The notes under the pieces: model-generated
Told to the model about the DNA's origin: nothing
Databases searched by the model: none
The model's input: the letters and a program-made list of their open reading frames with translations, nothing else
Translations under genes and position numbers: made by a program
In this document: positions 4,608 to 36,778 of the stretch, in pieces
Position numbering within the stretch: the stretch's first letter is position 1
Layout of the letters: every line of letters begins with the position of its first letter
Source of the DNA: a virus
Lineage: Duplodnaviria > Caudoviricetes
Virus record (IMG/VR): IMGVR_UViG_3300037484_000849
Location: 1 to 36,778 of that record
DNA: 36,778 bases
Reading direction: 5' to 3' (one strand)

Positions 4608-6313
4608 ATCAGCACTCCTCGGACCGGCACTTCGCACGTCGCCCGGCCCAGGCCGGTGTGGTCGATGCGCACGGTGTCCGTGTTCAGGCGACAGCGCACG
4701 AGGTACGAGATGCGCGCCACGTCAGCAATTTGGATCGTCGTACCCAGATTCGCGTCGATCGTGAGCTCGTCGATCACACCTGTGTCGGATGCGTTCGTGA
4801 TCTCACGGTAGTACGTCGTGCCGTTCTTCAGCATGATCGCGATGTGCTTGACCGGCTCATCCAGGTCCAAGTAGCGCGGGTAGCCCGAGCGCTCGACCGA
4901 AAGGACCGTGTCCGCCGCAGCGATCGCTTCCGTCAACGTGAAGTCGATCCGATAGGTCGGCAACCAGAAGGACCGCTGCCGGCCTTTCAACGCATGGATC
5001 AGCAGCCGCAACGCCCACACTTCGGCAGCCGTCTCTGGCTCCCAGCGCTTCTTGAAGTCGAGCTTCGGGAACGACTTCCGAATCACCGAGAAGATGCCGA
5101 CGTTGGTGTCCAGGAAGTCCGCGCTGCCGCCGAAGGGCTCTTCGCGCGTGTCGCTGCCGAGGAAGTTCGTATCAATGAACACGGGCATCGACTTGTACAT
5201 CGTCAGCCCGGCGTCGCTTGAGAGATCCTTGTACTCGCTCGAACGCCAGCGCATCCCTAGCGTGTGATAGCCGCTGCCGGTGCGCGAAACCCTGGCCGTA
5301 TCTTCGGCGAAGACGACCTGCATCGGGATGACCAGTGTGTCGATCGCCAAGTGCGCGAGAGTAGTCTCTCGGAGGATATCCAGCGAGAGGGGGTTGACCG
5401 CTGTGATCGCGACGACGTCGAAGTCGTCGTAGGCGTTCCAGAGGATCGCCGTACCGCCCACTCGAAAGTCGGCGATGGAGGTATTGACCGGAATCGAGAA
5501 GACGCCCGCACTGATGTCGGAGAGCAGCGGCTTCATGTCCGTCCACACGGGCACCGCGAAGCCGCGACCCATGTTTCCGTACAGCGCGTTGATCGCGTTC
5601 TGCCGCTCGACACCGTCGATCATCTGGTAGTTGTACTGGAAGACTTGCCGGGGGATGTCGCGCAGCGCGATCCGCTGTTCCGTCCCGTTGTAGGACTCCA
5701 GGATGTCCGTGAGCCAGATCAGCTCTTCGGAGATTGGGCGCTGCGGCTCGTAGGCGAACACGACGGCGCGATCGCCCGTGACCGTCAGCACCGGCATATC
5801 GTCGACGCCGAAGTCCCACGTGTAGGTCGCGGCGATGCGCGCCGGCCCATCTACGTCGACCGTCAGGGTGTAGGTCGTCTCGATGTAGGCTCCGACGTCG
5901 AGCGGTGGCGTCCCGAAGCCCCCCGTCAGAGCGATTCCCTCGGTGCCGGTTTCGACGATCTCCGCGAGATTCTTCGGGATGCTGTAGCCGTTCCAGACTT
6001 GGATCGTTTGGATCGTCTCACCGAGCACGAAGCCCAGTTCCAGGAGTTGTGGGATCACGTGGATCTGGTTGTACCAGTCGAGCTCGAAACCCTCGGCGTA
6101 GACACCAGCGCCCGGCGGGGCGAGCGGCGCGTAGGGGGCGGGAAGCGATCCGAAGATCGAATCTCGAGCCGGTTCTTGCGATTCGCAGTCCAAGCCGCCC
6201 GTCGGCCAAAAGAGATCCAGAGACAACTGATCGAAACTGATCGACGCGATCGGATTGGACCGATCGGCGAGATCGACGCCCAGCTCGGCCGGGTCTGTGT
6301 AGAAGCTCGCCAT
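4604..6313 (-). CDS. virion structural (distal tail) protein, YuA/M6-type
   Basis: Motifs DWYNQIHVIP, EELIWLTDILESYNGTEQRIALRDIPRQ and LKGRQRSFWLPT. Position between TMP and BR0599-like gene. Confidence 0.8.
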   Translation of the reverse strand: MASFYTDPAELGVDLADRSNPIASISFDQLSLDLFWPTGGLDCESQEPARDSIFGSLPAPYAPLAPPGAGVYAEGFELDWYNQIHVIPQLLELGFVLGETIQTIQVWNGYSIPKNLAEIVETGTEGIALTGGFGTPPLDVGAYIETTYTLTVDVDGPARIAATYTWDFGVDDMPVLTVTGDRAVVFAYEPQRPISEELIWLTDILESYNGTEQRIALRDIPRQVFQYNYQMIDGVERQNAINALYGNMGRGFAVPVWTDMKPLLSDISAGVFSIPVNTSIADFRVGGTAILWNAYDDFDVVAITAVNPLSLDILRETTLAHLAIDTLVIPMQVVFAEDTARVSRTGSGYHTLGMRWRSSEYKDLSSDAGLTMYKSMPVFIDTNFLGSDTREEPFGGSADFLDTNVGIFSVIRKSFPKLDFKKRWEPETAAEVWALRLLIHALKGRQRSFWLPTYRIDFTLTEAIAAADTVLSVERSGYPRYLDLDEPVKHIAIMLKNGTTYYREITNASDTGVIDELTIDANLGTTIQIADVARISYLVRCRLNTDTVRIDHTGLGRATCEVPVRGVLI

Positions 6314-7269
6314 CAGACGAACTTTCGGAAGGCCAACCCGTGATAGGCGCTAGACGTGGTTGTGAAAAGTGTCATCGTGGTATCGAGCGCAGCAGTACCC
6401 TTGGCGCGTGGCGGGAAGATTTTCCACGTGTCACTGCCAATGATGATCTCGTCTCCTCCGGAATGCAATTCCATCGAAACGAGACGCACGTCCTGTACAC
6501 GGCCCAGGTTCACGTTGCGACCTACCGCCGAAACCGTGAGATTCTTGCGCAAGAAAATCGGCGCGAGGATCGTACGCTGGGTCATGGGCATCAGCCCACC
6601 CAGCCAGAGTTGCTTCTCCGCATTGCGGTAGTTCGACGTCGAGGTATTCTGCATCGGCCCGAATTCTCGAGTCCAGTTCGGAGACGCAGCGCCAAGAACG
6701 CCATCGGTTCGGAACCACTGGGCGTGGACGGTCGACATGGCCGGACCGCCGGTAGCGCCAGCCGACGCGAACGGCGGGCGACTGGTGCCGACGGCGCCCG
6801 ACCAAATCAGGCTAGTGCAGTAGCCGCCGCCCGTGTAGGTGCCGAACTTCTCGACCGTTCCGAAGTGCCAATGCGAGTAGATACCCGACGAAACCTCGAC
6901 GACGCAATGGATGTAGCGCGGCGAGGCGTCGTTGCCAAACAAGTAGTACGCAGTGTGCGGGCCGGGGATTGCCTCGACCCGTCCGAACGTGTTGGCGGCG
7001 GCCGTAGTGTCCGGCGAACCAGGATGATCCTCGAACGCGGTGGCACCGCCCGCCGTATATCCGGTCGACGGCTGGAAGTGGATTCGATCGCTCGCGCCCA
7101 CCGCGATTGCATGGACCCACAGATCGTCAGAGTTGAAGGAGACCTGTCCGCTCGGCGCATCGCCCCCGAGTCCGCCCGTGTGGACGGTCCAGCCACGAGC
7201 GGCTGCGAAGACCGCGATCTTCGCCAGGAGATCCTCTTCGGAAGTGCTGACGCCCGTTTCGTATGCCAT
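6313..7269 (-). CDS. virion structural protein (tail)
   Basis: MAYETG...FAAARGW start and GDEIIIGSDTWKIFP...GLAFRK end. TGATG-coupled within the tail module. Confidence 0.75.
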   Translation of the reverse strand: MAYETGVSTSEEDLLAKIAVFAAARGWTVHTGGLGGDAPSGQVSFNSDDLWVHAIAVGASDRIHFQPSTGYTAGGATAFEDHPGSPDTTAAANTFGRVEAIPGPHTAYYLFGNDASPRYIHCVVEVSSGIYSHWHFGTVEKFGTYTGGGYCTSLIWSGAVGTSRPPFASAGATGGPAMSTVHAQWFRTDGVLGAASPNWTREFGPMQNTSTSNYRNAEKQLWLGGLMPMTQRTILAPIFLRKNLTVSAVGRNVNLGRVQDVRLVSMELHSGGDEIIIGSDTWKIFPPRAKGTAALDTTMTLFTTTSSAYHGLAFRKFV

Positions 7270-7281
7270 CAGAGGATTCCT

Positions 7282-9174
7282 TTACGCCAACCGCAAAGCG
7301 CAGAAGTTTGCGCGATCCGTTCGGAAGATGTTTTGCACGAGCAGATGATCGACACCATCCACGACCGTGATCTCTTCGGCCGCTCCGCCGAAAAACCCGC
7401 CACCAAACACACCGTCGAGCGCGCCGAATGGCTCGACATTGTTGGGAGCGGACGCGGCGGTTCCATTCATGTAGAGAATGCACGGATACAGCACATACTC
7501 TCCCGCCACGGTCACTTCCACAGCGTCGATCCAAGCGCGAGCGGTCGATTCCGTATCGTAGGGCCAGACGTATGGGACGTTGTCCGAAGCTGCATCGTTG
7601 TCGATGGTATCCCACGTTCCGCCGACAAGACGCAAATTTCCCGCCTGCGGGTCGTAGAAGGCTGCGGTCGCGGTGACGGCACTGGTGTGCGCATGCGACG
7701 CGGCGTTGTCGCCCGCCACGTACATCGGGTAGGGGTACTCGCTCGGCAGGGAGTAGGGCAAAAAGAAGCCCGCGTACAGCGTATGGTAAGTCGTGCTGGC
7801 GCGCGACACTACGATGAAGCGCCGGCCGTTCCACACCAACCAGAACGAATCCGCTGTCGGATGGAATGCGGTGAACGTGTCGGGACTGACGCCCGGCTGT
7901 GTGGTCAGCGAATTGCCGGCCGCGTAGCCGGTCATGCCATACGTTTCCCACGTGTAGATCGTCGAAGCGGGGGTCTCCTGAACTCGCAAGCCGATGTAGA
8001 CCGCGTCCGCGCCCGCGAGTCCCTGACCGTGCATGATCGTTTCCAGGTCGGCGGAGAATGGATCGTAACGGTCGATGATCCAGGAGTCGAAGCCGGCGCG
8101 CGTCTCGGAGATCAGCACACCCGCGTCGCCGGTCTCGGCGAGAACCGTGGTAGTGAACTTCAGCTCGAGCGCGCCGACGCGCGACACCACGAAGGTTGCG
8201 TTGTTCCCGCCGTCCACCGCGCCTGTGACTACTACACTCTGTCCGGCCAAGAAGCCGTCGGTCACGAAGGAGCCCGAGCTCCGGTTGACCGTGTTGGCCG
8301 TCTTGAAGTCGACGGTGAGCGAACCAGACGTGACGGTCTGGATGAACGTGACGCCTGCATCGCCTGTTTCGTCATCGGTGATGTCGCCGCCCGTGAATGT
8401 CAACACCAGCGCGCTGACGCCGGTCAGGGTCTTCGTGCCGTTGTTGCCCGCGTCGACCGCGCCTGCAATCACGACCGAACCGCCGACCTTGAAGCCATCC
8501 GTGATGAACGATCCGCTAGCGCGTGTTGCCGTCTCGGCCGCGTTGTCGAAGTCGACAGTCAGCGATCCGCTCGTGACCGTTTCGATGATCGTCACACCCG
8601 CGTCTGCTGCGGCCGTGGTGAGATCCTCGTTTACGGTGAGGACCAGAGCCGTGACCGCGGCCAGCGTGAACGTCGCGTTGTTCGCCGCGTCGGCCGCACC
8701 CGCTACGACCACGGTGTCGCCGACCTCGAACAGATCGGTGACGAAGGAGCCACTTCCGCGCGTGATCGTGCGACCGGGGATGAAGTCGACGGTGAGCGAA
8801 CCGCTCGTGACGCCGACCGGGACCACGAAATTGTCCCCTGCGATGAACGCGACACCGCCCACGTTGATGCGGAATGTGAACCGACCGGCTGGGGTGTTCG
8901 ACGTGTAGTTCGTCCCGGTGGTACCCGCGGCTTGCGCGCCCGAGATCGAGCCCGTGACCGAGAAGGCCGTCGCGCTCGTCATCGCGATCGTCCAGATTTC
9001 GGGCGGAGCGAGCGCCGCGGTGTCGACCGTGACGAGCACGCCGTTGCCTGTGCCCGTGTAGACCACGGTGCCGATCTGCGGTGCGCCCGTCAGGAAACGC
9101 CGGCAGTGGCGCCACAGACGGCGATGTGCCGTCTCGACGGTGTTGGCGGCGGGGCCGGTTCCATTCTTGTACAT
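7282..9174 (-). CDS. virion structural protein (tail) with three inserted ~80-aa repeats
   Basis: C-terminal part YAGFFLPYSLPSEYPYPMYVAG is typical of the first post-TMP protein. Three tandem TSGSLTVDF...SGSFxTDxF...GAxDxxNN...DAGV repeats. Confidence 0.75.
   Translation of the reverse strand: MYKNGTGPAANTVETAHRRLWRHCRRFLTGAPQIGTVVYTGTGNGVLVTVDTAALAPPEIWTIAMTSATAFSVTGSISGAQAAGTTGTNYTSNTPAGRFTFRINVGGVAFIAGDNFVVPVGVTSGSLTVDFIPGRTITRGSGSFVTDLFEVGDTVVVAGAADAANNATFTLAAVTALVLTVNEDLTTAAADAGVTIIETVTSGSLTVDFDNAAETATRASGSFITDGFKVGGSVVIAGAVDAGNNGTKTLTGVSALVLTFTGGDITDDETGDAGVTFIQTVTSGSLTVDFKTANTVNRSSGSFVTDGFLAGQSVVVTGAVDGGNNATFVVSRVGALELKFTTTVLAETGDAGVLISETRAGFDSWIIDRYDPFSADLETIMHGQGLAGADAVYIGLRVQETPASTIYTWETYGMTGYAAGNSLTTQPGVSPDTFTAFHPTADSFWLVWNGRRFIVVSRASTTYHTLYAGFFLPYSLPSEYPYPMYVAGDNAASHAHTSAVTATAAFYDPQAGNLRLVGGTWDTIDNDAASDNVPYVWPYDTESTARAWIDAVEVTVAGEYVLYPCILYMNGTAASAPNNVEPFGALDGVFGGGFFGGAAEEITVVDGVDHLLVQNIFRTDRANFCALRLA
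8107..8814 (-). repeat. three tandem ~240-bp coding repeats (80-aa module)
   Basis: Recurring gaagtcgac(g/a)gt(g/c)agcga(a/t)cc near 8305, 8548 and 8782. Visible in the translation. Confidence 0.9.
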
Positions 9175-19708: not shown

Positions 19709-19718
19709 GCGGAGCCCC

Positions 19719-20228: not shown

Positions 20229-20238
20229 GGTGGCTCCT

Positions 20239-21108: not shown

Positions 21109-21130
21109 CTCATGGTGTTACCGACGCACT

Positions 21131-24455: not shown

Positions 24456-24462
24456 GCCCTCC

Positions 24463-25243: not shown

Positions 25244-25440
25244 GAACTGGTCGCGGAAACGACTGCGGTTTGAGCTTGAAGCGCGCACTCCGCGAGCTCG
25301 GCGCTGTCCATGCTGCTCCACGAAACCTCCGTGTCCCCGTCCAGGTATCGGACGATGACCATGACGCCGTAGACGCCCTCGCGCTTCAGCGCGGTGATGA
25401 GCGTCTGGTTGGGTGCAATCTGTCCGGCGCGCGGTGGCAT
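25240..25440 (-). CDS. hypothetical protein
   Basis: GAGG RBS before ATG 25440. Codon usage like neighbouring genes. Confidence 0.5.
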   Translation of the reverse strand: MPPRAGQIAPNQTLITALKREGVYGVMVIVRYLDGDTEVSWSSMDSAELAECALQAQTAVVSATSS

Positions 25441-25450
25441 GACCTCGACG

Positions 25451-26194: not shown

Positions 26195-26197
26195 GAC

Positions 26198-26926
26198 TCA
26201 GACCGCGGCGTCGGAAAGAAGCACTCCCGTCAGTCCGCCGGCCACAACCTGATCGGCCGCACTGACGGCGGTCACGCGGACCACCACGTCGGAGCGGGGG
26301 CCGAAGAACTTCGGGGTCTCGAAGGGCTGCCGAAAGGGCGAGCTGGCGAGCGCATAGGACGCCGAAGCGTACAGCCGTTTCACCCCGTCCTCGTTTCCGA
26401 ACAGCCCGAATGTGATGGTGCCCGCGCTCGAGACGCTCCCCTGGAACGACGTGACGAACAGCCGGAATCCGACGGGGACGCTGTAGTAAGCGCCGTTGCT
26501 GTGACCCTCCGAGATCGGGATGTTCACCCACGTGGCGCCCGCGGCCGCGATTCGCACCGTGATGGTTCCCGCGTTCGTGAGGCCGGTTCCCGCCGTCCGG
26601 ACCGTGGCCTTGTTCACGCGCAGCCACGTGCCAGTCAGTGCGACCGCACCCACGCCATTCAGCGTCGCGACCTCGGACTTGTAGACCCAGCTCGCGTCGA
26701 CTCCTTCGATGAAGACTGTGCGCGCGCCCGTGCCGGCCGCAGCATCCGCCGCATCGCTGGAGAGGATCTCGAGAGACTGCGCGGTGGTGGCAAACGGGAT
26801 GCTTCCGCCGACCGCGAAGATGTCCTCCGCAGCGTCCACGTCGCCGTTCGAGCCGAAGGCGTGAATCGGCGTGAAGCCTGTGCGCCGTCCTCGGGCTACC
26901 TCGAAGAAGAAATCGTTCGCCTGCAT
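26198..26926 (-). CDS. putative virion protein, paralogue A
   Basis: MQANDFFFEVARG...FGSNGDVDAAEDIF...GTGARTVFIEGVDASW. Confidence 0.65.
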   Translation of the reverse strand: MQANDFFFEVARGRRTGFTPIHAFGSNGDVDAAEDIFAVGGSIPFATTAQSLEILSSDAADAAAGTGARTVFIEGVDASWVYKSEVATLNGVGAVALTGTWLRVNKATVRTAGTGLTNAGTITVRIAAAGATWVNIPISEGHSNGAYYSVPVGFRLFVTSFQGSVSSAGTITFGLFGNEDGVKRLYASASYALASSPFRQPFETPKFFGPRSDVVVRVTAVSAADQVVAGGLTGVLLSDAAV

Positions 26927-26935
26927 AGGTGCCCC

Positions 26936-27004
26936 TCAGATCCAGAAGGTTGCGATGAAGGCGGCGAGCCACGTGGCCGCGCCCCAGATGAGCTTCGCGG
27001 TCAT
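26936..27004 (-). CDS. 22-aa hydrophobic micro-protein (not in ORF track)
   Basis: MTAKLIWGAATWLAAFIATFWI*. TGATG overlap with the upstream gene, fills the gap to the next RBS. Confidence 0.4.
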   Translation of the reverse strand: MTAKLIWGAATWLAAFIATFWI

Positions 27005-28857
27005 CACCGCGCCTGTTCGTTGATCAGGAAGGCGTCGACCGAGGCCGTCGCGACCTCGGCCGCTGTGGCGCCGTTGACCTCGAGCACGGTTGTCGACACG
27101 ACCTTGCCGATGCGCCAGTAGCCGTCGTTCGCGCCGGAGGCCGCCGTGTCCTGGAGGTAGAGCAGCTTGCCGAGCGCGAAGCCATCCGTGGCCCAGGAAC
27201 CGGCGCCGCGCGTGAGGCGCGATCGGCCCTTCAGGGTGGCGTTCACGTCGCGAACGATTTGCGCCGTGAACGGAGTCGTCACGTAAGCGCGCGTGTTCGC
27301 GGTCGAGCGCAGGATGTAGTTCCCGTCCACGCCCGCGCCGGCCGCCGCGATGCTGATGCCCTCGGCCGCCTCGAAGAAGTCGTCCTCGAAGTCGCCGGCC
27401 GCGCGCAGGATCACGTTCGCGATGAACACCGCCTCGCCGCCCAGCGCGTCTGTCTCTCCCTCGAACTCGGCGCCCGTCACGATCGCGATGCCACTCGACG
27501 GGATGCTCGCGACCGTCGCCTCGAACGCCTGCCCGGCCGGAGTCGTGCCGACCAGGATGCAGCCCGCGACGATGTTGGTCGTGGGGAAGCCGTTGAGCGT
27601 GTTGTACTGGACGACCTTGCAGCGCTCGGACACCTCGTCCGTGAGCTCGGCCGTCGCGATCGTCACGCCCGCGTCGCCGACCTCGGAGGCCGGGAGATCC
27701 TTCACGTACAGGACCAGCGCCGTGACGCCGATGACCTCGAACTCCGCGTTGTTGGTGCCGTCCGCGGCGCCCGCGATCTGGACCTTGTCGCCGTGCTGGA
27801 AGCCGTCGGTCAGGAACGAGCCCGAGCTGCGCGTGATGGAGCCGCGCTCACCGAGCGCGAACGTCACCGTGATCGACCCGGTCGTGGCGCGCGCCACCGT
27901 GATGGTGTCCGTCGTGACCGCGGTGATCTTGTACCGGCCGTTGTTCCGCAGCGTGGACTGGACCTCGATCAAGCCGCCGACCACGAAGCCGATGGTGTCG
28001 AAGTCGATGTCGTCGGTCGAGACGATGGTCCGGCTCGAGCGATCGAACGTGAACTCGTCCGTCGCGGCCAGACAGTCCGCGACCACGCCGTAGCTGACGG
28101 TCGGGCTGCCGGCGCTCACGATGACCGACGTGTCGGTCGCCACGACCAGGATCGGATCGGTGAGCACGAGGCCCGCGCCCACGACCGTCTCGACCGCGTA
28201 GCCGCCGTCATTCGCAACGGTGCCAGACAGGTAGACCGTCCCGGCCGCGAGGCCGAAGTTCGCGAAGGTCACGCCGTCGACGTCCTTGATCGAATCCAGG
28301 GAGGTGAGGGTGACGCCTGCGTCGCCGACCTGATCGGTCGTGATGTCGCCGGCTGCGAAGGTGATCGTCAGCGCCGCCACGGTCGCGACGACCTTGCCGG
28401 TGCCGTTGTTCCCTGCGTCCACCGCGCCCGTGATCGCCACGCGCGATCCGACCACGAAGCCATCGTCGACGAACGAGCCGGACGCGCGAACGACCGAATT
28501 GTCCGAGTCGTCGAACGTCACCGTGATCGCGCCAGTCGTGGCGCCGATCTTCAGCGAGCGCGTCTCGGCCTGGGGGCTGTACTCGCCGAACGTCAGGTTG
28601 GTCGGCGAGATGGCCGCCTTCTGGAGCGCCGTCAGCGTCACCACGTTCACGACCGCGCCGGCCGCCGCGAGATCCGCCGCCGCGTCGATCTGCGCCGCGG
28701 TCTTGCCCGTCGGGTGGATGTTGCGGAAGCAGTCGCGGATCACGCGCTCGGGAGCAGCCTTGTCGGCCGCCTCACTCGCGAGGAACGCGGAGAGGCTCGA
28801 GTGGCGGTGCCGGTCGACGGCGCCGTGGCGCAAGTGCTTGCGGTGAATGTTCGGCAT
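27004..28857 (-). CDS. 617-aa repeat-built putative virion accessory (fibre/decoration) protein
   Basis: Two close and several diverged copies of the SGSFxxDGF..G..V...GA.D..NN module. His/Arg-rich N-terminus. Confidence 0.65.
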   Translation of the reverse strand: MPNIHRKHLRHGAVDRHRHSSLSAFLASEAADKAAPERVIRDCFRNIHPTGKTAAQIDAAADLAAAGAVVNVVTLTALQKAAISPTNLTFGEYSPQAETRSLKIGATTGAITVTFDDSDNSVVRASGSFVDDGFVVGSRVAITGAVDAGNNGTGKVVATVAALTITFAAGDITTDQVGDAGVTLTSLDSIKDVDGVTFANFGLAAGTVYLSGTVANDGGYAVETVVGAGLVLTDPILVVATDTSVIVSAGSPTVSYGVVADCLAATDEFTFDRSSRTIVSTDDIDFDTIGFVVGGLIEVQSTLRNNGRYKITAVTTDTITVARATTGSITVTFALGERGSITRSSGSFLTDGFQHGDKVQIAGAADGTNNAEFEVIGVTALVLYVKDLPASEVGDAGVTIATAELTDEVSERCKVVQYNTLNGFPTTNIVAGCILVGTTPAGQAFEATVASIPSSGIAIVTGAEFEGETDALGGEAVFIANVILRAAGDFEDDFFEAAEGISIAAAGAGVDGNYILRSTANTRAYVTTPFTAQIVRDVNATLKGRSRLTRGAGSWATDGFALGKLLYLQDTAASGANDGYWRIGKVVSTTVLEVNGATAAEVATASVDAFLINEQAR

Positions 28858-28887
28858 GATGTCCTGTCCCCCGTGAAGGTGAAGTGT

Positions 28888-28911
28888 AGCTCCACCCTTG
28901 CGGGTGGAGCT
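28888..28911 (-). other. perfect 10-bp stem with GCAA tetraloop upstream of the 617-aa gene
   Basis: AGCTCCACCC-GCAA-GGGTGGAGCT on the minus strand, with no U-tract. Confidence 0.75.
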
Positions 28912-28972
28912 GGTGACGCTCGAGTCTCGTAACGGCCTCGCTGAGCGGGGGTGCCTATTGAGGGTCGAGCGA

Positions 28973-29131
28973 TCAGTTCTGGGTGTAGTCGGGCGTGAAG
29001 CGCTCGTAGTCGGCGAGCGTTCCGATCTCGACGGTCTGCACCGACGCCGCGTAGGCGGCCGGCACGTTCTTCAGGTCGTCGGTGTAGTAGGGCACGGTGC
29101 CGACGAAGTAGAGGTAGGCCACGAGGATCAT
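28973..29131 (-). CDS. hypothetical protein
   Basis: RBS AAGGAG and ATGA overlap at 29131. Confidence 0.55.
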   Translation of the reverse strand: MILVAYLYFVGTVPYYTDDLKNVPAAYAASVQTVEIGTLADYERFTPDYTQN

Positions 29132-29478
29132 TTCTGCTCCTTTCGGCGCCGGGGTGCGCAGAAGTTCTTGGTGCAGAGGCCATCCGTGCGCTCGCATCGA
29201 ACGCAACGGGGATGGACGTCGATACGTAGGCGGCCGCGCGTGATGAGGTACTGCGTCACGTCTGGGTCCGCGACGAGCCGCTTGGGCTCTACGTCGAAGC
29301 GGATCTCGCCGGGGTTGTGGATCGTGTCCGTCTTCGCGCCGGCCGTCCGATCGTTGTACTCGTGCGCGCCGTACTCTGGCAGGAACATCAGCTCGAAAGC
29401 GCCGGGCTCTTCGCGCTTCAGGTTCTCCTTGGTCCAGTACGCTCGGAGTGCGGGGGACATCTCCTGGAGCGCCATCAT
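29128..29478 (-). CDS. hypothetical protein with C-terminal Cys cluster
   Basis: ATGATG overlap with the upstream stop. CVRC...LC...FC. Confidence 0.55.
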   Translation of the reverse strand: MMALQEMSPALRAYWTKENLKREEPGAFELMFLPEYGAHEYNDRTAGAKTDTIHNPGEIRFDVEPKRLVADPDVTQYLITRGRLRIDVHPRCVRCERTDGLCTKNFCAPRRRKEQK

Positions 29479-29813
29479 CCGAGTCCGATCAGACCGAAGA
29501 GCACGCTCGAGATGCCGCGCATGAACAGGCGCGCGTTCAGGAAGAACCGAGTCGAGCCGGCCTTGAAGCCTTCGCGGCCCTCGAGCCGCTCGAGCGCGAG
29601 ATCGGTGCGCACCGTCTCGCACGGGTAGCTGGGGAACGCGGCGCCGACCGAGCCGGCGTCGACCTTCGCGTTGTTGCCGCCGCAGAGCGCGTCGAGCTCC
29701 GTCGTGGGCGACGTGCGCACAACGACCTGGGTCTCGACGTTCGTCTCCTCGTCCATGGCGTTCGCCGTGACGGGCACGATGAAGAGCAGCAGGAAGAGCG
29801 GGAGCGTTTTCAC
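29475..29813 (-). CDS. secreted/membrane protein
   Basis: GTG start coupled to the SPFH gene stop. Signal peptide ending ANA, two Cys, hydrophobic C-terminus. Confidence 0.55.
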   Translation of the reverse strand: MKTLPLFLLLFIVPVTANAMDEETNVETQVVVRTSPTTELDALCGGNNAKVDAGSVGAAFPSYPCETVRTDLALERLEGREGFKAGSTRFFLNARLFMRGISSVLFGLIGLG

Positions 29814-30361
29814 GAATCCTCCGCCAGCGGATTTCCGCGGGGCGCGCTGATCAGATGCAGGGCCGGCGTCCGCGTGGCTGTCGCGATCGAGACGCGCTTG
29901 ATGTCCACGCCCCAGCCACGCATGCGCGTGTGGGCGAGCTTCCGGACCGTCTCGGCCCAGCTCGTGTCGAGGCGATCGCTGATGAGCGCGATCTCGCTCG
30001 CGGCCGCGCGCACCGTGTCGCCGACCGCTTCCTTCAGCTCGTCCTGGACGTTCTTGAAGTAGAGCGAGAGATTGTCGATCTGGCACTGCACGAGCAGCGA
30101 GAAGGTCTGGTCGCCGACGCGCTGCGGCGCCGTCTCGAAGACTTCGAGGTTGCACTCCCACGCGACGAGCGTGCCCACGATGGGCCAGTAGAAGTGGACG
30201 CCCGTGCCGCGCACGCCGTTCGAGGACGTGCGGTCGCCGTCCTTGTCGATCACGCCGAAGCGCGTGCGCACTCCGCGCTGCCACGCGTACACGATCTTGA
30301 CGGGGATCAGCGCCGAGATGTGGTCGAGGAGCTTCTGGAAGAACGCCGCGAGGCTGTTCAT
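29810..30361 (-). CDS. SPFH/Band-7-like protein
   Basis: IVYAWQRGVRTRFG...GVHFYWPIV...WGVDIKRVSI pattern. Confidence 0.7.
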   Translation of the reverse strand: MNSLAAFFQKLLDHISALIPVKIVYAWQRGVRTRFGVIDKDGDRTSSNGVRGTGVHFYWPIVGTLVAWECNLEVFETAPQRVGDQTFSLLVQCQIDNLSLYFKNVQDELKEAVGDTVRAAASEIALISDRLDTSWAETVRKLAHTRMRGWGVDIKRVSIATATRTPALHLISAPRGNPLAEDS

Positions 30362-30462
30362 GCGGACCTCGGGGGTTGGGGGTGTGCGCTCGCCCCGCTT
30401 GCACTTCCCGCAGCGTGGCGGTGGAGCCGACCGGCGGAGCGCGACCGGAGCGGCGGCGGGCT

Positions 30463-30633
30463 TTACGGAACGAAGGGCAGGAGCTCGGCGATCGGCTCCG
30501 CGATCGTGTCGGGCTTCGAGAAGGCGTCGAGCACATGCGCGGGCGCACCAAGCGCGCCGAGGATCTGGTAGGCGACCGCGGCCATCTCGCGTAGCCGAGC
30601 GTTCTCCGCCGCCAGCGCCGCGCGGGACTTCAC
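30463..30633 (-). CDS. hypothetical 56-aa protein (not in ORF track)
   Basis: GTGA overlap. VKSRAALAAENARLREMAAVAYQILGALG... Confidence 0.45.
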   Translation of the reverse strand: MKSRAALAAENARLREMAAVAYQILGALGAPAHVLDAFSKPDTIAEPIAELLPFVP

Positions 30634-30839
30634 AGCACCGACAGGGCGCCGTGCGCGCGATCCATCCGCTCCTGGAGCGCCGCGCGCTCGTCGGGAGTCG
30701 GGTTGCGGTTGTCCGCGACCATCGCAGCGATCTGGTCGTTCAGCGCGCGAAGCTCGAGCTGGATCTCGGGGGCGTGCATCAGGCCGAAGGTCAGGAGCCG
30801 CATGTACTTCAGGATCAGGGCGGCGAGCTCGGGCGTCAT
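30630..30839 (-). CDS. hypothetical helical protein
   Basis: RBS GGAGG and ATGA overlap. NRNPTPDERAAL motif. Confidence 0.6.
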   Translation of the reverse strand: MTPELAALILKYMRLLTFGLMHAPEIQLELRALNDQIAAMVADNRNPTPDERAALQERMDRAHGALSVL

Positions 30840-30970
30840 TCGGACCTCCGCAGATGCAGGGTGAGCAGGAGCGCCGCGACTGCCGCGACGATCAGGAGGG
30901 TGGCGAGGATTCCGACGGATAGGGTGGCAACGCGCCGAAGACGGTCAGGTCGGCGCCGCAGCTTGGGCAT
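30836..30970 (-). CDS. single-TM small protein
   Basis: Basic N-terminus then VATLSVGILATLLIVAAVAALLLTL. Its stop overlaps the next ATG. Confidence 0.4.
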   Translation of the reverse strand: MPKLRRRPDRLRRVATLSVGILATLLIVAAVAALLLTLHLRRSE

Positions 30971-31044
30971 GGCTGCCGTCCGGAGTGGTAGACCTGGATG
31001 CGGTCGTCGCAGTTCTCGCACCATGCGAGCGCGCAGGGGTCCAT
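30892..31044 (-). CDS. 50-aa zinc-ribbon protein (not in ORF track)
   Basis: MDPCALAWCENCDDRIQVYHSGRQPCPSCGADL... with TAATG-coupled start. Confidence 0.45.
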   Translation of the reverse strand: MDPCALAWCENCDDRIQVYHSGRQPCPSCGADLTVFGALPPYPSESSPPS

Positions 31045-31146
31045 TACCAGGGGCGCCGGGTCGGCTTGGGCTTCTTCTTGCGCTTCATCGCTTCAGCTTC
31101 GGGCGATGCGGGCAGCCTGCATGGTAGGGACCGCAGTCGCAACGCA

Positions 31147-31344
31147 TTAGCCGTGCAGCCGCGCGGTGTACCGGCCGGTCGTGTACTCGTCGGCGCGATG
31201 CTCGAGCGCGTGGGCCTGCTTCCGCAGCCACGTCGCGAGCCGCTGGCGCCGAATGGGGTCCAGGGAGCCGGGGCCTTGGACGGTGAGGCGCGCGATCGGC
31301 GGCCGGTCTGCGTCGGTCGTCTCCTCGACGATGGGGCCGGTCAC
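31147..31344 (-). CDS. hypothetical protein
   Basis: GTG at 31344 overlaps the lipoprotein TGA. Confidence 0.5.
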   Translation of the reverse strand: MTGPIVEETTDADRPPIARLTVQGPGSLDPIRRQRLATWLRKQAHALEHRADEYTTGRYTARLHG

Positions 31345-31700
31345 AGGTCGCTCGGCGGGATCGGGTTGTCGCCGGGCTTGCCGGCGCGCTCGATCAGGTA
31401 GAGCTCGAAGGCCGCCAGGGCCTTCTCGGCGAGCGCGGTGGCCGCGCTCGGGTCGCGGCCGACGGCGATCAGGGCCTCGCCGGCCTTGCACGCCTCGTAT
31501 GCCTGGGAGTCCCACACGCGCAGCGTGAGGATGTCCTCGGGCGACAGGGCGCCGGTCTGGGCGAGCTCGGCCGCGTTGGTCGCGACGACCGCGTAGGTGC
31601 CGCAGACCGCGTGGTAGAGCTGCTCTGGGGTGGCAGTCGGCCCGACGCTCGCGCATGCGAGACAGAGGGCCAGGGGGAGGGCGATCAGCGACTTGTGCAT
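31341..31700 (-). CDS. putative lipoprotein, first gene of the leftward operon
   Basis: MHKSLIALPLALCLA|C lipobox-like and RBS GGAGG. Confidence 0.65.
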   Translation of the reverse strand: MHKSLIALPLALCLACASVGPTATPEQLYHAVCGTYAVVATNAAELAQTGALSPEDILTLRVWDSQAYEACKAGEALIAVGRDPSAATALAEKALAAFELYLIERAGKPGDNPIPPSDL

Positions 31701-31818
31701 CGGGGCCTCCAGAGTGGGGACGGTTTTGCCACGAAAATGCGCAGCATTTGTGGCAAAGTGGGCGAATCTGCGTTCCGCCGGGCCAGCCGACGGGCGAGAC
31801 TCTCCCGATTCGAGCCAG

Positions 31819-31846
31819 AGTGTAGCACCGGCCGGAATTGCGTCAA
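31819..31846 (-). promoter_or_regulatory. sigma70-type leftward promoter
   Basis: TTGACG-16 bp-TACACT with extended -10 TGn, ~120 bp upstream of the first leftward gene. Confidence 0.6.
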
Positions 31847-31847
31847 G

Positions 31848-31987
31848 TCTGCTACTAAAATGAGGTAAATTAGGGGTATATTAGTAGCAGATGCGCAAAA
31901 TGTAGCTGAAACGCCCGGAAAAGTCGTTTCACGGAAAATTCTACTAAAATAGAAGACTTAGGGGCCGGATCTTCTACTCAAATAGAA
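31848..31987. promoter_or_regulatory. cluster of CTACTAAAAT-type operator-like repeats
   Basis: 11-bp inverted pair tctgctactaa (31848)/ttagtagcaga (31881), plus TTCTACTAAAATAGAA (31939) and TTCTACTCAAATAGAA (31972). Confidence 0.6.
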
Positions 31988-32094
31988 CGCGGGTCGGCAG
32001 CTAAGTACCTGAATTAGCGGGTTTTGCGGGTTTTTACCGAGATACGAAACGTACTCGAGGCCCCGAGGCACGCAACTCGTGCGCATTTTCCTTA

Positions 32095-32760
32095 GTGTAC
32101 CCCCATTGACCCCTAATGAACCCTCTTGTACCCTCATTGACCCTAGTTATGCAAAGCTGCACATGCGTTGCATATGTAGTGCATGCGCACTATACCCTAT
32201 GCGCACGCATCATGCACACTAGCTGCCTACCCATAGTGTACCCTCGTGCATGTGCAATATGCGCACGCATAGACCCTAATGCGCGCGCAGCATACCCCCT
32301 CGCATGTTGCGTGCGCATTGACCCTAGTGTTCGTGCAGCGCTCTGCCCGAGCGCTCGGAGTCGGAATCGGGGGGTACCTGCGCATGCGTTCCTAGGAATT
32401 GCGCCGATATGCGCCCATAGAATCGAGCCTTTTAGGGGTACATGCGCTAGGGTTATCTCTAGGTTAGGGTCAAATAGGCTCTATTAGGGAAATCGAATTC
32501 GCGCGCGTGAAATAGCCTCGCTATTAGGCGCTATCCGGGATCGCTCGCCATATTCGCAATCTGCCCATTTCAGCCTCCGATTGCGCGGATGCGCGCATAT
32601 GCGCGCCACTTTCCCTGGAGTCTGTAGAAGGGTTCGGGCGCCCCTACCCTACCCCATGCGGGAGCGCCTAATAGGGTAGGCTATACAGGGTATCTATACA
32701 GTCTTAGATATATCAGCGTAATCAGCGCACTAGCGCAAAGTCTTGTCATTGCTAGGGTTT
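32095..32760. repeat. non-coding array of ACCCT/AGGGT short repeats and purine-pyrimidine tracts
   Basis: ACCC at 32099, 32109, 32120, 32130 and 32140. Further (G)ACCCT copies to ~32330, then TAGGG copies from ~32430. Confidence 0.7.
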
Positions 32761-32802
32761 TCCCTCCGCCGATTCTACGCTAACCTGCGCCGAAGCAAGT
32801 CT

Positions 32803-32891
32803 CGCGCAATTTGCGGCCGAAAGTGACAATCCGCGGCGCCCCGCGCGCTCGCGCGCCCGTAGCGTGCTCCGCGCTTCGGCATGCGCCTTGC
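32803..32891 (+). promoter_or_regulatory. sigma-54 promoter P1 with upstream tandem activator-like sites
   Basis: CGGCATGCGCCTTGCT (GG 32878, GC 32890, 10-nt spacing). 15-mers at 32803 and 32823. Confidence 0.7.
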
Positions 32892-32904
32892 TCTACCCCC
32901 GCCC

Positions 32905-33255
32905 ATGCAATCCGAGCGCGATCGAAAGCGGCCGATGCCCGACAAGGCGGCCGATACAGCGGGGCGGGGCGCGCAGTCTACGGACGCGGCGCGCGAAAGC
33001 CTTGCCGCTCGGCCAGTCGACGCGCGGCCGTTTGACTTTGAGCGGCCGCGCGTCGACGATTCGCCCGCCAGCGTGGCGAGCATGCGCCGAGCGCTGCGCG
33101 ACGCGGCCGTCCGCGCCGAGTACCTGCGCGACGCGTTCGAGCGCCTAGGCGATCGGCTGGCGGCCGTCAACTACCCCCGCGAAGCGAAGGCGCAGCGCGC
33201 GGACGAAAAGCGCGGGATTCGCGAGCGCGCGCTGCGCGCCGCGAAGGGGCGCTAG
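32905..33255 (+). CDS. hypothetical early protein
   Basis: ATG 32905 lies just downstream of P1. The track's ATG 32881 lies inside the promoter. Confidence 0.5.
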   Translation: MQSERDRKRPMPDKAADTAGRGAQSTDAARESLAARPVDARPFDFERPRVDDSPASVASMRRALRDAAVRAEYLRDAFERLGDRLAAVNYPREAKAQRADEKRGIRERALRAAKGR

Positions 33256-33257
33256 CC

Positions 33258-33656
33258 ATGCGAGACGCGCAGCGCTCGCGAGTCTACGCGGCGGAGCGCG
33301 CCGCTTTCACAGGCTCGGATGTAGCCTGCAAGCTCCGCCTTGGCGACGCGCAACGCGTCGCCGCATTCTACAAAGTGAATGCGACGCATAACCCACGCCT
33401 TCGCCGCTTCGCTGGTACTGCGCGCGTCGAATCCGAGTCGATCGAGTTTCGCGACGCGGCGCCTAGCCTCTGGATTCTACTTCACGAGCTAGCGCACGTC
33501 GTAGCATGGCGCCGAGCGCCTAAGGCGGCCGCACATGGCGGAGAATTCTGCGCCGCCTATCTGCGCCTAGTCGCGGAGCACGCTGGAACCCAAGCGGCCG
33601 AAAGGCTCGCCCGCGAATTCCTCGCGGGGCGCGTTGATTTCGGCGCGTGGCGATGA
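33258..33656 (+). CDS. HExxH zinc metallohydrolase (SprT-like / TIGR04338-like)
   Basis: RDAQRSRVYAAE N-terminus and LLHELAH...HGGEF. Confidence 0.75.
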   Translation: MRDAQRSRVYAAERAAFTGSDVACKLRLGDAQRVAAFYKVNATHNPRLRRFAGTARVESESIEFRDAAPSLWILLHELAHVVAWRRAPKAAAHGGEFCAAYLRLVAEHAGTQAAERLAREFLAGRVDFGAWR

Positions 33657-33865
33657 AAACCCGCGCGGAGCGCTTCGCGGCGCGAGTCGAGTATGCGCAT
33701 GCGTGCTACTGTGAAGCGCTGGCGAATGCGCTCGCGGCGCGCGATGCGTCGATAGCTCGAGCCGCGTCGCAATTTGCGGCCGAAAGTGACGAAACGCGGC
33801 AGCGCGAAGGGGCGCGCGCCACGCTCCGCGCTCCGCGCGCTGGCATGCGCCTTGCGATAGGGTAG
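33653..33865 (+). CDS. possible hypothetical protein overlapping P2
   Basis: ATGA overlap, but the 3' half runs through the regulatory element. Confidence 0.35.
   Translation: MKTRAERFAARVEYAHACYCEALANALAARDASIARAASQFAAESDETRQREGARATLRAPRAGMRLAIG
33766..33855 (+). promoter_or_regulatory. sigma-54 promoter P2 with upstream tandem activator-like sites
   Basis: TGGCATGCGCCTTGCG (GG 33842, GC 33854). 15-mers at 33766 and 33786. 23 bp identical to P1 (cgcaatttgcggccgaaagtgac). Confidence 0.8.
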
Positions 33866-33869
33866 GGGT

Positions 33870-34031
33870 ATGGACAAGCAAACTCTCAAGGCTTCGGATC
33901 TGACGACTCTGGCGGAAAGCATGCTCGACGTGCAGCGCGACGCGGACGCGGCGCGCAAGGCGGACGCGAACGTGATCCGCGGTATCGAGTCGGGCGATCG
34001 CACCATCCGCCTTCCGGACACGCTGAAATGA
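33870..34031 (+). CDS. 53-aa hypothetical protein (not in ORF track)
   Basis: MDKQTLKASDLTTLAESMLDVQRD...PDTLK*. ATGA overlap with the next gene. Confidence 0.6.
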   Translation: MDKQTLKASDLTTLAESMLDVQRDADAARKADANVIRGIESGDRTIRLPDTLK

Positions 34032-34285
34032 GCAAGCGCAAGGCGACGCTGCGCTGCGCCGCGTGCGGCAAGCGCGACGCGGGGCGCTCGGGTACCAGTA
34101 CCGCGATGCGCTGCCCCGATTGCGCGGACGGCCGCACGCTGGTACGCTTCGCGACGAAATGCCGCGCGTGCTGCCCGTCGGGGCATGGTACGCGCTGGCC
34201 GGCGGACGCGCCCGAGATTTTCGCGCCTTCCGAGCCTTGCTCATGCGGCGCGAGCGGATGCCCCATGCACGGAAAGGAAAGCTAG
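34028..34285 (+). CDS. Cys-rich zinc-finger protein
   Basis: CAAC...CPDC...CRACC..H...CSCGASGCPMH. Confidence 0.6.
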   Translation: MSKRKATLRCAACGKRDAGRSGTSTAMRCPDCADGRTLVRFATKCRACCPSGHGTRWPADAPEIFAPSEPCSCGASGCPMHGKES

Positions 34286-34287
34286 CG

Positions 34288-34617
34288 ATGCGATACCTAG
34301 AACGATGCGTTTTCGGTTTGCTCGTCGACTCCGCGAAGGCGGACGGTTTCACGCTGCGCCGCTTCGCTTGTACTCCCGCGACGGGCGAGCAAGGCGACGA
34401 AATCACGGGCGAGCCTGTGAGCCTTGCGTCCGCGATCGCGCATGCGAACGCGTGGGATTCGAATAGCGTGGCGGAATTCGCGCACGCGGACGGCCGAGAC
34501 TTTTGGGCGCTCCTAGTATGGGGCAATGGGGAAGACGTGATTTCCGACTATGCCGACACGCGCGCAGCGCGGGCAATCGTCGAGCGCGTGTCCACCATTC
34601 TCGACTCGGACGTCTAG
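34288..34617 (+). CDS. hypothetical early phage protein
   Basis: RBS AAGGA before ATG 34288. WALLVWGNGEDVISDY motif. Confidence 0.65.
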   Translation: MRYLERCVFGLLVDSAKADGFTLRRFACTPATGEQGDEITGEPVSLASAIAHANAWDSNSVAEFAHADGRDFWALLVWGNGEDVISDYADTRAARAIVERVSTILDSDV

Positions 34618-34619
34618 CC

Positions 34620-35132
34620 ATGAAACGCGAGCGCTTTCTATGTCGCGCGCTCCGCGGCGGAATCACGCTCTACAGTGTAGAGCGCTACGCGCTCGGCGCC
34701 GAAGCGGCGCTAGCGGATTTCCGCGCCGAGTTAGTGCGACGCGCGGAGCACGCTGGCGCTAGCGTTTGCGTTGACCTACTCCCGCGCATAGACGTGAATC
34801 ACAGCGCGGCCGCGGTAGGCGCCAGCGTCGCGTGCGCCGAATGCGGGCGCATGCACGCGCTCTACTCGTCGACATTCGGCGATGAGCCTTTCCGTTTCTA
34901 CTGCCACGCGTGCGCGTGCGCCCGATGGGGCGCCGCGCGTGTCGAAGCGGCGCACGCCTACGCGTGCAAGCATGGGCGCGCGTACCCCACGCGGCAATGC
35001 TCAGAGTGTACCTGCGCGCATGGTCAAACGATCGGATGCCGCTATTGCGCGGAGCGCCGCGCCGCTTGGATCGCGGGCGAGCCTTGCCCGGATGCGCGCC
35101 ACGCGGCCGAGCTCGAAAGGGGGACGAAATGA
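34620..35132 (+). CDS. Cys-rich hypothetical protein
   Basis: CAEC, CHAC, CKHG..CSEC and CAHG..CRYC. ATG right after the upstream TAG. Confidence 0.55.
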   Translation: MKRERFLCRALRGGITLYSVERYALGAEAALADFRAELVRRAEHAGASVCVDLLPRIDVNHSAAAVGASVACAECGRMHALYSSTFGDEPFRFYCHACACARWGAARVEAAHAYACKHGRAYPTRQCSECTCAHGQTIGCRYCAERRAAWIAGEPCPDARHAAELERGTK

Positions 35133-35371
35133 AACCGCGTCGATTGTATGTTGGGATTCTGCCCGATGGCATGCGCCGAGTTTTTCGCTCTGCCCGCGTA
35201 CCGACGGACGCGACGCACGGGCGCGAATTCCTCGCTTGCATCGGTCCGTTTCGCACGCAAGGCGCTGCCGACTACATGGCAAGCTATGGCGGAGGAAATC
35301 CGCATTGTGTATGTGTCGCGGACGCGGAGTCGATCGTAAAAACCCTCAAGCGAAAGGCGAAGCAATGTTGA
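35129..35371 (+). CDS. hypothetical early protein
   Basis: RBS AAGGGGG and ATGA overlap. YVG...VFRS...PT..THG...IGPFRT...NPH. Confidence 0.6.
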   Translation: MKPRRLYVGILPDGMRRVFRSARVPTDATHGREFLACIGPFRTQGAADYMASYGGGNPHCVCVADAESIVKTLKRKAKQC

Positions 35372-35535
35372 CCCTCGGAATTCTCGCGCTCACTCTGGCG
35401 GCCGAAATCATACTCGGCGCGCTCGCCTTCGCGCGGCCGCGGATCGGTACTCCGCTCCGCCCGTCGCAAGCGGCGCGCGACGCGGAAATCCGCGCCCGAT
35501 GCTCGCCCGCGCAGGCTCGCTATCCCATGCACTAG
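35365..35535 (+). CDS. small single-TM protein
   Basis: MLTLGILALTLAAEIILGALAFA. Confidence 0.45.
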   Translation: MLTLGILALTLAAEIILGALAFARPRIGTPLRPSQAARDAEIRARCSPAQARYPMH

Positions 35536-35536
35536 C

Positions 35537-35614
35537 GCCGCAATTCGCGGCAGAGCGCCGCGAAACGTCACGCGCGGCAAGCGCAGCGCGCTCCGCGCAT
35601 GGCATGGCGATTGC
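35537..35614 (+). promoter_or_regulatory. sigma-54 promoter P3 with upstream tandem activator-like sites
   Basis: TGGCATGGCGATTGCG (GG 35601, GC 35613). 15-mers at 35537 and 35557. Intergenic. Confidence 0.8.
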
Positions 35615-35627
35615 GATAGGTGAGGCT

Positions 35628-35834
35628 ATGAAAACCCGGACACTGAAACAGGTTGAAACCGATATAGCGACGATCACGGCCGAAGCCGAGAAGCATTTGA
35701 CCGCATGGCGCAATCTGCGGGCGATGCCGACGGACTCAGATCGGCAGGCATTCGAGCGGCGCAAGAAAGCAATCGTCGCGAAGCTGGCGAAGCTGGAAGA
35801 CGAGCGCTTGAATGCCATTCTTGAGTCGGTCTAA
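35628..35834 (+). CDS. coiled-coil hypothetical protein
   Basis: MKTRTLKQVETDIATITAEAEK... TAATG-coupled to the next gene. Confidence 0.6.
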   Translation: MKTRTLKQVETDIATITAEAEKHLTAWRNLRAMPTDSDRQAFERRKKAIVAKLAKLEDERLNAILESV

Positions 35835-36256
35835 TGCAAATGATTGAAACCCTGCGAAACGGACTAGGCGAAGCGCTCCGCGCGTTCGCCACTCCGCGCT
35901 ACACCGTAGCGGATCGCGCGCCGAGCACGCTCGCCGAAGTGGCGGCGCACTACTCCGCGACGCATTCAATCTGTGTCTGGAGTGGCGAAAGCGAGTCGAG
36001 CATATGGGGCGCGCAGGGTAACTACAGGTTTCGCGCGTGGCATGATGCGCTGCACTTGTCGACTGGGATCGGTTTCGAGCCTATCCCGGAAATCGAAATC
36101 GGCCGCTATCAAGCGCGGATCGCGGGGCGCTATGGCGACGCGTTCGCGCGCCTTGTCGAAATCGAAACCGCGGGGCAAGCGGCGGAGTACTTGCGGACGG
36201 GCGGTTATGTCGTCGATCAAATCGCCTTCGCGATCGCATCGGGCGCGGGGCGCTAA
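35834..36256 (+). CDS. hypothetical phage protein with HDxxH motif
   Basis: NYRFRAWHDALHL...GF....E...IETAGQ, a possible zincin-like metal site. Confidence 0.6.
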   Translation: MQMIETLRNGLGEALRAFATPRYTVADRAPSTLAEVAAHYSATHSICVWSGESESSIWGAQGNYRFRAWHDALHLSTGIGFEPIPEIEIGRYQARIAGRYGDAFARLVEIETAGQAAEYLRTGGYVVDQIAFAIASGAGR

Positions 36257-36257
36257 C

Positions 36258-36778
36258 GTGTTCGCCACTCACAATCCGATTATCCGAGCCTTCGCGCAGT
36301 CGAGCGCCGAAGCGCTGGCGCATGTCGGAGTGTTCGTGCTCGCGACCATACAGAATCCGATCGAGCGCGCGGCCGAAGACGCGGCGCGCATCGCGCGGGG
36401 CGAAGCCGAGCCTAGCTCGCTTCCCCGATCGTTTTTCGGTTTCAAGGTACGCGCCGCCTACGCGCTACTGCGCGAGCGCGAATCGCTTTTCGCGGATGCC
36501 ATGGCAATCGGCGCGGGCGATCCGCTCGCGCTCACTCTGCGCTTTTCGCGCCTTGACGGTTTCGGACTAGTCAAGGCGGGGTTTTTCGTCCAGCTTGCTT
36601 TCGGCGTGAGCGGATGCCTAGACGGACACAATCTAGCGCGCTTCAATATCGACGCGGGCGCCTTCCGGATTCGCCCCATGTCAGAATCGAGCGGAGCGCG
36701 AAGCGAGCGCACGCGAGCGAAGCGCTGCGCGAAGTATCTCCGCACAGTCGAGCGCTGCGGGGGTACTGCGGCGCTCTG
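36258..36778 (+). CDS. HhH-GPD-like (DNA glycosylase-fold) protein, truncated by window end (not in ORF track)
   Basis: GTG 36258 open to the window end. LDGFGLVKAGFFVQL...GCLDGHNL resembles HhH (hxGhGxKxA) plus the downstream D-x-H of Ogg-type glycosylases. Confidence 0.6.
   Translation, partial: MFATHNPIIRAFAQSSAEALAHVGVFVLATIQNPIERAAEDAARIARGEAEPSSLPRSFFGFKVRAAYALLRERESLFADAMAIGAGDPLALTLRFSRLDGFGLVKAGFFVQLAFGVSGCLDGHNLARFNIDAGAFRIRPMSESSGARSERTRAKRCAKYLRTVERCGGTAAL

Follow-up and report, generated by a model that had tools for sequence, protein, structure and literature searches.

Which polymerase, and which activator, would transcribe the early-type genes of a phage whose three early blocks each stand behind a sigma-54-type −24/−12 element preceded by two short paired sites? 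Phage early promoters are usually activator-free and hence fire at once, and the question is raised by IMG/VR virus record IMGVR_UViG_3300037484_000849, a linear record with an estimated completeness of 61% that constitutes the whole 36,778-nt stretch analyzed here (the window). The three units, P1, P2, and P3, lie in its early arm. A first-pass annotation, made from the letters alone, had read them as sigma-54 promoters dependent on a host activator, and the results support this reading: the GG-N10-GC spacing is found in 3 of 3, the spacing to the ATG is fixed, the unit is conserved, and its sites are of pilin type. We consider it probable that the three early blocks are transcribed by the host sigma-54 polymerase activated by the host pilin regulator PilR, with entry through the pilus, which we infer.

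As shown in Table 1, the six 15-mers and the three −24/−12 elements are all present where the annotation had placed them, and its site-to-GG distances (75, 76, and 64 bp) and exact GG-N10-GC spacing proved correct. The pairing of two sites 20 bp apart also stood. The register of the proximal site did not, because this site (site B; the distal one is site A) is better described as a 17-bp sequence of the type GTGACG-N5-CGGCNC, and in P3, where both sites are indeed present, site B is inverted (12/15 identical to the P1 reverse complement, 6/15 directly). Further, the TTGC-to-ATG gap, which the annotation had not mentioned, is 13, 14, and 13 nt in P1, P2, and P3. In sigma-54 geometry the GC lies at −13/−12 relative to +1, and a GC 13–14 nt ahead of the ATG therefore puts the predicted +1 2–3 nt before the start codon. 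Relative to this predicted +1, the paired sites are centered at about −93/−73 (P1), −94/−74 (P2), and −82/−62 (P3), so that the distal sites span −82 to −94; the proximal ones, read as 17-bp sites, are centered at about −73, −73, and −63, and 38, 39, and 29 nt separate the end of site B from the GG; the enhancers of bacterial enhancer-binding proteins (bEBPs) typically lie 80–150 bp upstream. P1 lacks a Shine-Dalgarno sequence, and P2 and P3 each have one upstream of their own predicted +1, which would be transcribed on read-through from upstream and not from the unit's own promoter. Two details of the earlier description fared less well: the GCTCCGCGC element said to be shared by the units is weak, with further copies at 35875 (one) and on the minus strand (four) and a T>G change at 32868 in a relative, and the intergenic or near-intergenic placement must allow for P2 lying within the 3′-terminal part of a 70-aa ORF (33653–33865) that is itself doubtful.

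The YGGCAY-N5-TTGC pattern has 3 matches in the 36.8-kb window, all on the plus strand, compared with a mean of 0.39 and a maximum of 2 in 100 shuffles. In 3000 shuffles of the early arm (4078 nt), the mean was 0.058 (maximum 2), falling to 0.002 when an ATG 11–15 nt downstream was required, and the tandem-site pattern, which was fitted to these same sites, never arose. A chance origin of the three units is excluded. No sigma-70 consensus was found on the plus strand of 31600–36778; the 2 matches there are both on the minus strand, with 1.3 expected by chance. GTGAC/GTCAC occurs 3 times in window positions 31500–36778 (5279 nt), each time as a B site, and 82 times in the remaining 31,499 nt.

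Two sequencing runs with phage-related sequence, X1 and X2, are sediment metagenomes, X1 perhaps being the sample from which the record comes, and no RNA run was among the listed runs with such sequence. The conservation check that the annotation had called for came out in its favor, the unit being kept in the X2 relative as a conserved island between diverged flanks. A 996-nt contig aligns over 32805–32907, a stretch running from site A through to the ATG. It differs there at 14 places, and two indels compensate each other; past the ATG, 144 letters are unaligned before alignment resumes within ORF1, and the 566 letters upstream have no listed alignment. Ten of the 14 differences are located, all within 32841–32877, and they include 32877 C>T, towards the TGGCA consensus. 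Similarly, in a second X2 contig (depth 2), P3 is joined directly to ORF 35834, so that the 14 nt from GC to ATG are kept in front of a different gene. The three units are a real, selected regulatory unit.

To identify what such sites resemble, we collected host pilin loci, and by "PilR site" we mean the conserved site before host pilin genes; papers are cited here and below for the passages available, which hold no experimentally defined PilR consensus. From the class of genome G003, a Myxococcota class, 30 loci were fetched (56 of 61 genomes matched), 27 of which have a sigma-54 element before the pilin gene. Other members of the Sorangium phylum supplied 26 loci, 16 of them usable; the class of G008 and the order of G007 supplied 29 each, of which 13 and 19, respectively, were distinct and usable. 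The labels Myxococcota, Gammaproteobacteria, and Burkholderiales are read from records L110, L104, and L102; the class of G003 and the phylum of G004 overlap in the sampled genomes, and two unpublished genomes were left out.

Many host pilin promoters hold paired 17-bp sites of the type (G/C)TGAC-N7-G(T/G)CAC, among them strong-plus-weak pairs. A de novo motif derived solely from the upstream DNA of the 27 class-of-G003 loci, from a random start and with no phage sequence, ranked the B sites of P2, P1, and P3 first, second, and fifth in the window, and one from the 16 other Myxococcota loci ranked them first, second, and third. With 17-bp matrices refined from a GTGAC seed, the three take ranks 1, 2, and 3 of 73,524 window positions for the class of G003, where they score 18.5–19.5 against a host median of 18.2. 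Their ranks are 3/10/20 or 4/11/6 for the other Myxococcota, 6/13/16 for Gammaproteobacteria, and 1/6/13 for Burkholderiales, so that none of the four host sets places a B site lower than 20th. The probability that the three best positions would by chance lie upstream of the three elements is roughly 4e-7. At the level of single sites, the first 15 nt of the P2 site are identical to a host pilin site in L366, and the P3 and P1 sites match a site in L379 at 16/17 and 15/17 positions. The 20-bp pair spacing of the phage is found as 19–20 bp in 8 of 11 gammaproteobacterial pilin-promoter pairs. The sites and the pilin gene of L371 closely follow the end of a gene for a REC-AAA+-HTH activator, and similar activator C termini are visible by eye in L336, L404, L408, L409, L442, and L455. 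The earlier guess of PilR thus gains evidence from the likeness of the B sites to pilin-promoter motifs and of the tail proteins to pilus-binding fibers; the flagellar-type regulator offered beside it drew no support, with no direct test aimed at flagellar regulators. Many class-of-G003 pilin promoters (L358–L387, by eye) also conserve a TGCCGAT box about 30 nt upstream of the −24 that the phage units lack. A gap of 14 nt between the GC and an ATG, like that of the phage, also follows bacterial sigma-54-like elements in L101 and L110, and 10-bp tandem repeats lie 25–55 nt upstream of such elements in diverse bacteria (L098, L102, L105, L106, L110, and L115), for which the search pattern had selected.

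The two tail proteins each match a single PDB sequence, and only chains of 8rk3/8rk5 (E 2e-16 and 3.9e-13), which are tail fibers of the pilus-binding phage JBD30 (PMC11946847). The type IV pilus is therefore a likely receptor, judging from protein similarity, and this evidence, which does not depend on the DNA motif, indicates the same host structure. Cultured phages with related tail proteins infect Pseudomonadota; the Myxococcota class, Burkholderiales, and other Gammaproteobacteria may each be considered candidate hosts. A comparison of window positions 16800–36778 with 151 class-of-G003 genomes gave short matches only (best, 44 bp at 91%), with no repeat arrays at the 15 host loci fetched from them, and the pilin loci from 5 Acidobacteria/Planctomycetes genomes, 3 in number, have no sigma-54 element.

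In the mechanism that we propose, the phage would adsorb to type IV pili, and after its entry phosphorylated PilR would bind site B and, by oligomerizing, would extend to the weaker site A, which lies two helical turns farther upstream. PilR would open the sigma-54 complex, with a start 2–3 nt before the ATG and a nearly leaderless mRNA, and transcripts reading through from upstream would use the Shine-Dalgarno-like sequences of P2 and P3. Because pilin transcription needs PilR in any piliated cell, PilR would be a dependable activator, and a reliable, always-on activator is favored over the state-sensing gate that the annotation had in mind, which is possible but not needed. PilR with sigma-54 activates pilA, PilS acts as a phosphatase when membrane pilin is high and phosphorylates PilR when pilin is lost, and PilS-PilR may receive such a signal from attached pili that do not retract (bioRxiv 10.1101/323923). 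A further step, which we regard as tentative and somewhat unlikely, is that entry and early transcription are coupled to one host circuit, restricting infection to cells with the pilus circuit on, and that siphoviruses and podoviruses converged on this. Bound, non-retracting pili would then drain the membrane pilin pool, PilS would phosphorylate PilR, and the early promoters would fire, so that the phage's own attachment could possibly turn the pilus circuit up.

The unit was also sought in other phages. The full pattern had 0 matches in IMG/VR, no close IMG/VR relative was confirmed with ORF 35834, P2 had no blastn match among cultured phages, and no such unit was seen among the sigma-54-like elements of 14 terminase loci (35–48% identity) and 80 loci of the 36258 family (23–38%). 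A viral scan for the tandem sites, with no sigma-54 element in the pattern, gave 2 matches, L215 and L216. L215 was rejected as a repeat array. L216 is a podovirus-type contig with the sites at its early/late junction, where 26 of 30 site bases equal P1 and the sites adjoin the only two TGGCAY-N5-TTGC elements of the 27-kb record. Among 19 matches of a viral scan that included the sigma-54 element, L231 alone has the same unit; it is a syntenic relative of L216 (terminase identity 61%), with the unit at 52 nt compared with 114 nt in L216. Another viral scan gave 8 matches, of which only L224, the same contig as L216, has a downstream sigma-54 element. The B sites of L216 and L231 score 20.3 and 12.2 on the pilin matrix, and neither contig has a detectable protein in common with the window. 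A strict sigma-54 element also precedes the terminase gene in several other podovirus family loci, and in the L304–306 cluster, which was found through a protein search, one lone PilR-type site lies 116 nt ahead of a sigma-54 element. A genome-wide pattern scan gave 20 matches, about the rough chance estimate, several of them decamer repeats. The 97 loci of a metagenome scan were mostly decamer arrays; within 150 nt, 2 of them have a relaxed sigma-54 match and 0 a strict one. Arrays of GCGGC-N5 decamers in or next to phage replication-initiator-like ORFs (L118, L136, L170, and L215) are probably iterons. Clusters of 4–6 sigma-54-like elements on both strands were seen at L060:3513–3761 and L070:992–1171 and in L228, L234, L239, L241, L242, and L244, the last six accompanied by 10-bp GTGGC-type repeats.

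Several observations weigh against the assignment to PilR. Host sites lie 109–165 nt (class of G003), 53–164 nt, and 53–207 nt from the GG, compared with 29–39 nt in the phage, only L492 being closer, and 0 of 151 gammaproteobacterial genomes have such a site 20–50 nt from a sigma-54 element; no IHF consensus was found in the linkers of P1–P3. The class of G003 fits best in sequence, but its pairs are spaced by 21–22 bp (22 of 24) and not 20, and no sampled lineage fits the phage units on all counts. Of 301 genomes each of Myxococcota and Gammaproteobacteria, 0 and 2, respectively, contain the exact tandem at 3 mismatches. The podovirus family was represented by 82 loci, namely 2 GenBank records and the 80 best of the 375 loci found with terminase. 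Of these, L216 and L231 alone contain the tandem, at 25.3 and 22.0 bits, whereas the next locus reaches 12.9 bits, and the unit is thus patchy across that family, as expected of a host-dependent feature. The refined matrices were seeded after the likeness had already been noticed, the name PilR comes from position and literature and not from a family match, and binding and transcription are predictions from sequence alone. The contigs of the X2 relative are single and shallow (depth 2–7), with 4 of the 14 P1 differences having no listed position, and 39% of the phage genome is missing from the record. Lastly, site A scores −8.6 to 4.4 on all pilin matrices, yet is conserved in five units (P1–P3, L216, and L231), and so may bind something else.

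This conserved but ill-fitting site A would suit sigma-54 promoters served by another host activator with a similar site, or by a second protein at site A alongside PilR, which we judge unlikely. Among 71 class-of-G003 genomes, 11 do contain the site-A consensus, 13 times in all, and one copy (L432) has a GTGACG site 21 bp on; however, none of the 13 has a sigma-54 element within 220 nt, and the reversed-pattern control for site A (0 matches) is biased by TA depletion. Site B by itself scores like native pilin sites, and the strong-plus-weak pairs of host pilin promoters would accommodate a poor site A under PilR. A known case of the right geometry is the bEBP NmpR of Myxococcus xanthus, which has paired 15-bp dyads with a 5-nt gap at the pilR promoter and a different sequence (PMC11841059); an NmpR-type site was rejected, because its consensus, GCGCA-N5-TGCGC (core GCA-N5-TGC), is not the phage sequence when compared by eye. 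The unusual nearness of the sites to the −24 element and the missing IHF site would also fit units that act as decoys or repressive elements, binding PilR and sigma-54 and possibly lowering host pilin expression during phage replication, with the genes read from another promoter. Two-strand clusters of sigma-54-like elements in other phages point the same way, as does L216, whose leftward element (10054, minus strand) points to the late genes and has its predicted start inside the tandem sites. However, all three units face ATGs at a fixed 13–14 nt that is kept despite the change of downstream gene in the relative, and the plus strand offers no sigma-70 consensus from which the genes could be read, so we find this quite unlikely.

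An activator encoded by the phage, in the missing part of its genome or packaged in the virion, is made conceivable by a record that is 61% complete and by the existence of a bEBP-like phage protein, Htm of phage AV110 (bioRxiv 10.64898/2026.10.06.757011). Htm shares with our case a phage link to sigma-54 transcription; in the cited passages it lacks GAFTGA and a helix-turn-helix (HTH) and acts on host genes, with no enhancer sites. The earlier statement that no activator is encoded holds for the sequenced part, which has no match to PF00158 (sigma-54 activator) or PF02954 (Fis-type HTH), and none was above the cut-off in G000, G005, and G610 (one sub-cut-off match of 12.7 bits in G610). Because the sites match host pilin promoters and are common to unrelated phages with no detected protein homology, we consider a phage activator very unlikely. 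Exceedingly unlikely, in our estimate, are duplicated relics or iteron-like repeats with an incidental likeness to sigma-54 promoters: P1 and P2 share 23 identical bases, and GCGGC-N5 decamer arrays are common in metagenomes, but the flanks of the units are unrelated (5–8/30), site B of P3 is inverted, the island is conserved in the X2 relative, and an unrelated lineage has the unit again, together with sigma-54 elements.

Like PilS-PilR/sigma-54 control of pilA in P. aeruginosa (bioRxiv 10.1101/323923), the phage units have a −24/−12 element, paired upstream 17-bp sites, and the gammaproteobacterial 20-bp spacing. They differ in their three copies, in the lack of a regulator gene in the sequenced part, in having one weak site per pair, in the 29–39 nt to the GG (mostly 53–200 in hosts), and in the nearly leaderless starts predicted, compared with 55–172 nt to the pilin GFTL motif in Myxococcota. 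Such pilin control reportedly also operates in Myxococcus and Geobacter. The closest phage parallel is the Pseudomonas siphovirus YuA, described as sigma-54/RpoN-dependent and pilus-using (PMC5053324, PMC10914365, PMC12035536), with a tail protein (gp71) 29% identical to that of our phage and one start classed as sigma-54 (PMC10914365). In contrast to the consensus-grade early elements with activator sites described here, its three annotated −24/−12 promoters sit in the structural region, and a scan of its genome found 0 strict sigma-54 elements and a single PilR-type match (24836), far from those promoters. The start classed as sigma-54 (L505, YuA 38492) shows, by eye, sigma-70-like −35/−10 sequences upstream. 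A literature search with the motif strings returned one RegAB paper, rejected for its opposite orientation, and no prior report of PilR- or bEBP-driven phage promoters, or of activator sites in them, was found by a search that left subscription journals largely outside. The promoter type is known; notable here are the pilin-type activator sites paired with pilus-type tail proteins on a phage. If true, control of early genes by sigma-54 and a two-component regulator of the host would couple the onset of infection to host signaling, and the matching of an activator to the receptor's own regulator would provide a testable logic and a sequence clue to the receptor of uncultured phages. It would also offer a concrete model for the loosely supported claim of RpoN dependence in some pilus phages and, possibly, compact PilR-responsive promoters.

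Table 1. Promoter units and genes of the window. Scores are in bits where so marked; ranks are with the host-only matrix
Feature	Position	Strand	Remarks
P1 distal site A	32803..32817	+	15-bp pseudo-palindrome; pilin-motif score −8.6
P1 proximal site B, 17-bp PilR-type	32823..32839	+	rank 2/73,524; 18.8 bits
P1 sigma-54-type −24/−12 element	32877..32891	+	predicted +1 ~32903
P2 distal site A	33766..33780	+	pilin-motif score 4.1
P2 proximal site B, 17-bp PilR-type	33786..33802	+	rank 1; 19.5 bits
P2 −24/−12 element	33841..33855	+	predicted +1 ~33867
P3 distal site A	35537..35551	+	pilin-motif score 3.7; 35544 T>A in X2 relative
P3 proximal site B, 17-bp PilR-type, inverted	35555..35571	−	rank 3; 18.5 bits
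P3 −24/−12 element	35600..35614	+	predicted +1 ~35626
ORF1, first early-type ORF, 116 aa	32905..33255	+	no Shine-Dalgarno sequence; predicted leaderless; no family
SprT-like metalloprotease ORF, 132 aa	33258..33656	+	PF10263, E 2.9e-6
P2 block of small ORFs	33870..35535	+	no significant family for any
P2 block ORFs	33870–34031, 34028–34285 (Cys-rich), 34288–34617, 34620–35132, 35129–35371, 35365–35535	+	
P3 block	35628..36778	+	ORFs 35628–35834, 35834–36256 (phrog_7806), 36258 to contig end
Junction of late genes (− strand) and early arm (+ strand)	31870..32800		lower GC; apparently non-coding
Two tail proteins	6313–7269, 7282–9174 (6313..9174)	−	related to JBD30 tail-fiber chains

Terminase, portal, capsid, tail, and endolysin genes form a siphovirus morphogenesis module on the minus strand, with a capsid protein at most 46% identical to those of cultured phages of Pseudomonas, Vibrio, Roseobacter, and others. 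Beyond the junction, the plus strand consists of small ORFs that mostly have no family, and their designation as early is suggested by the genome layout. An atlas search with ORF1 returned zero matches, and ORF 35628–35834 is missing from the X2 relative. The junction, possibly a genome end, packaging site, or origin, holds many short TAGGG/CCCTA and ATGCGC repeats, and the late arm includes a gene of the SPFH/Band 7 family (29810–30361, minus strand).

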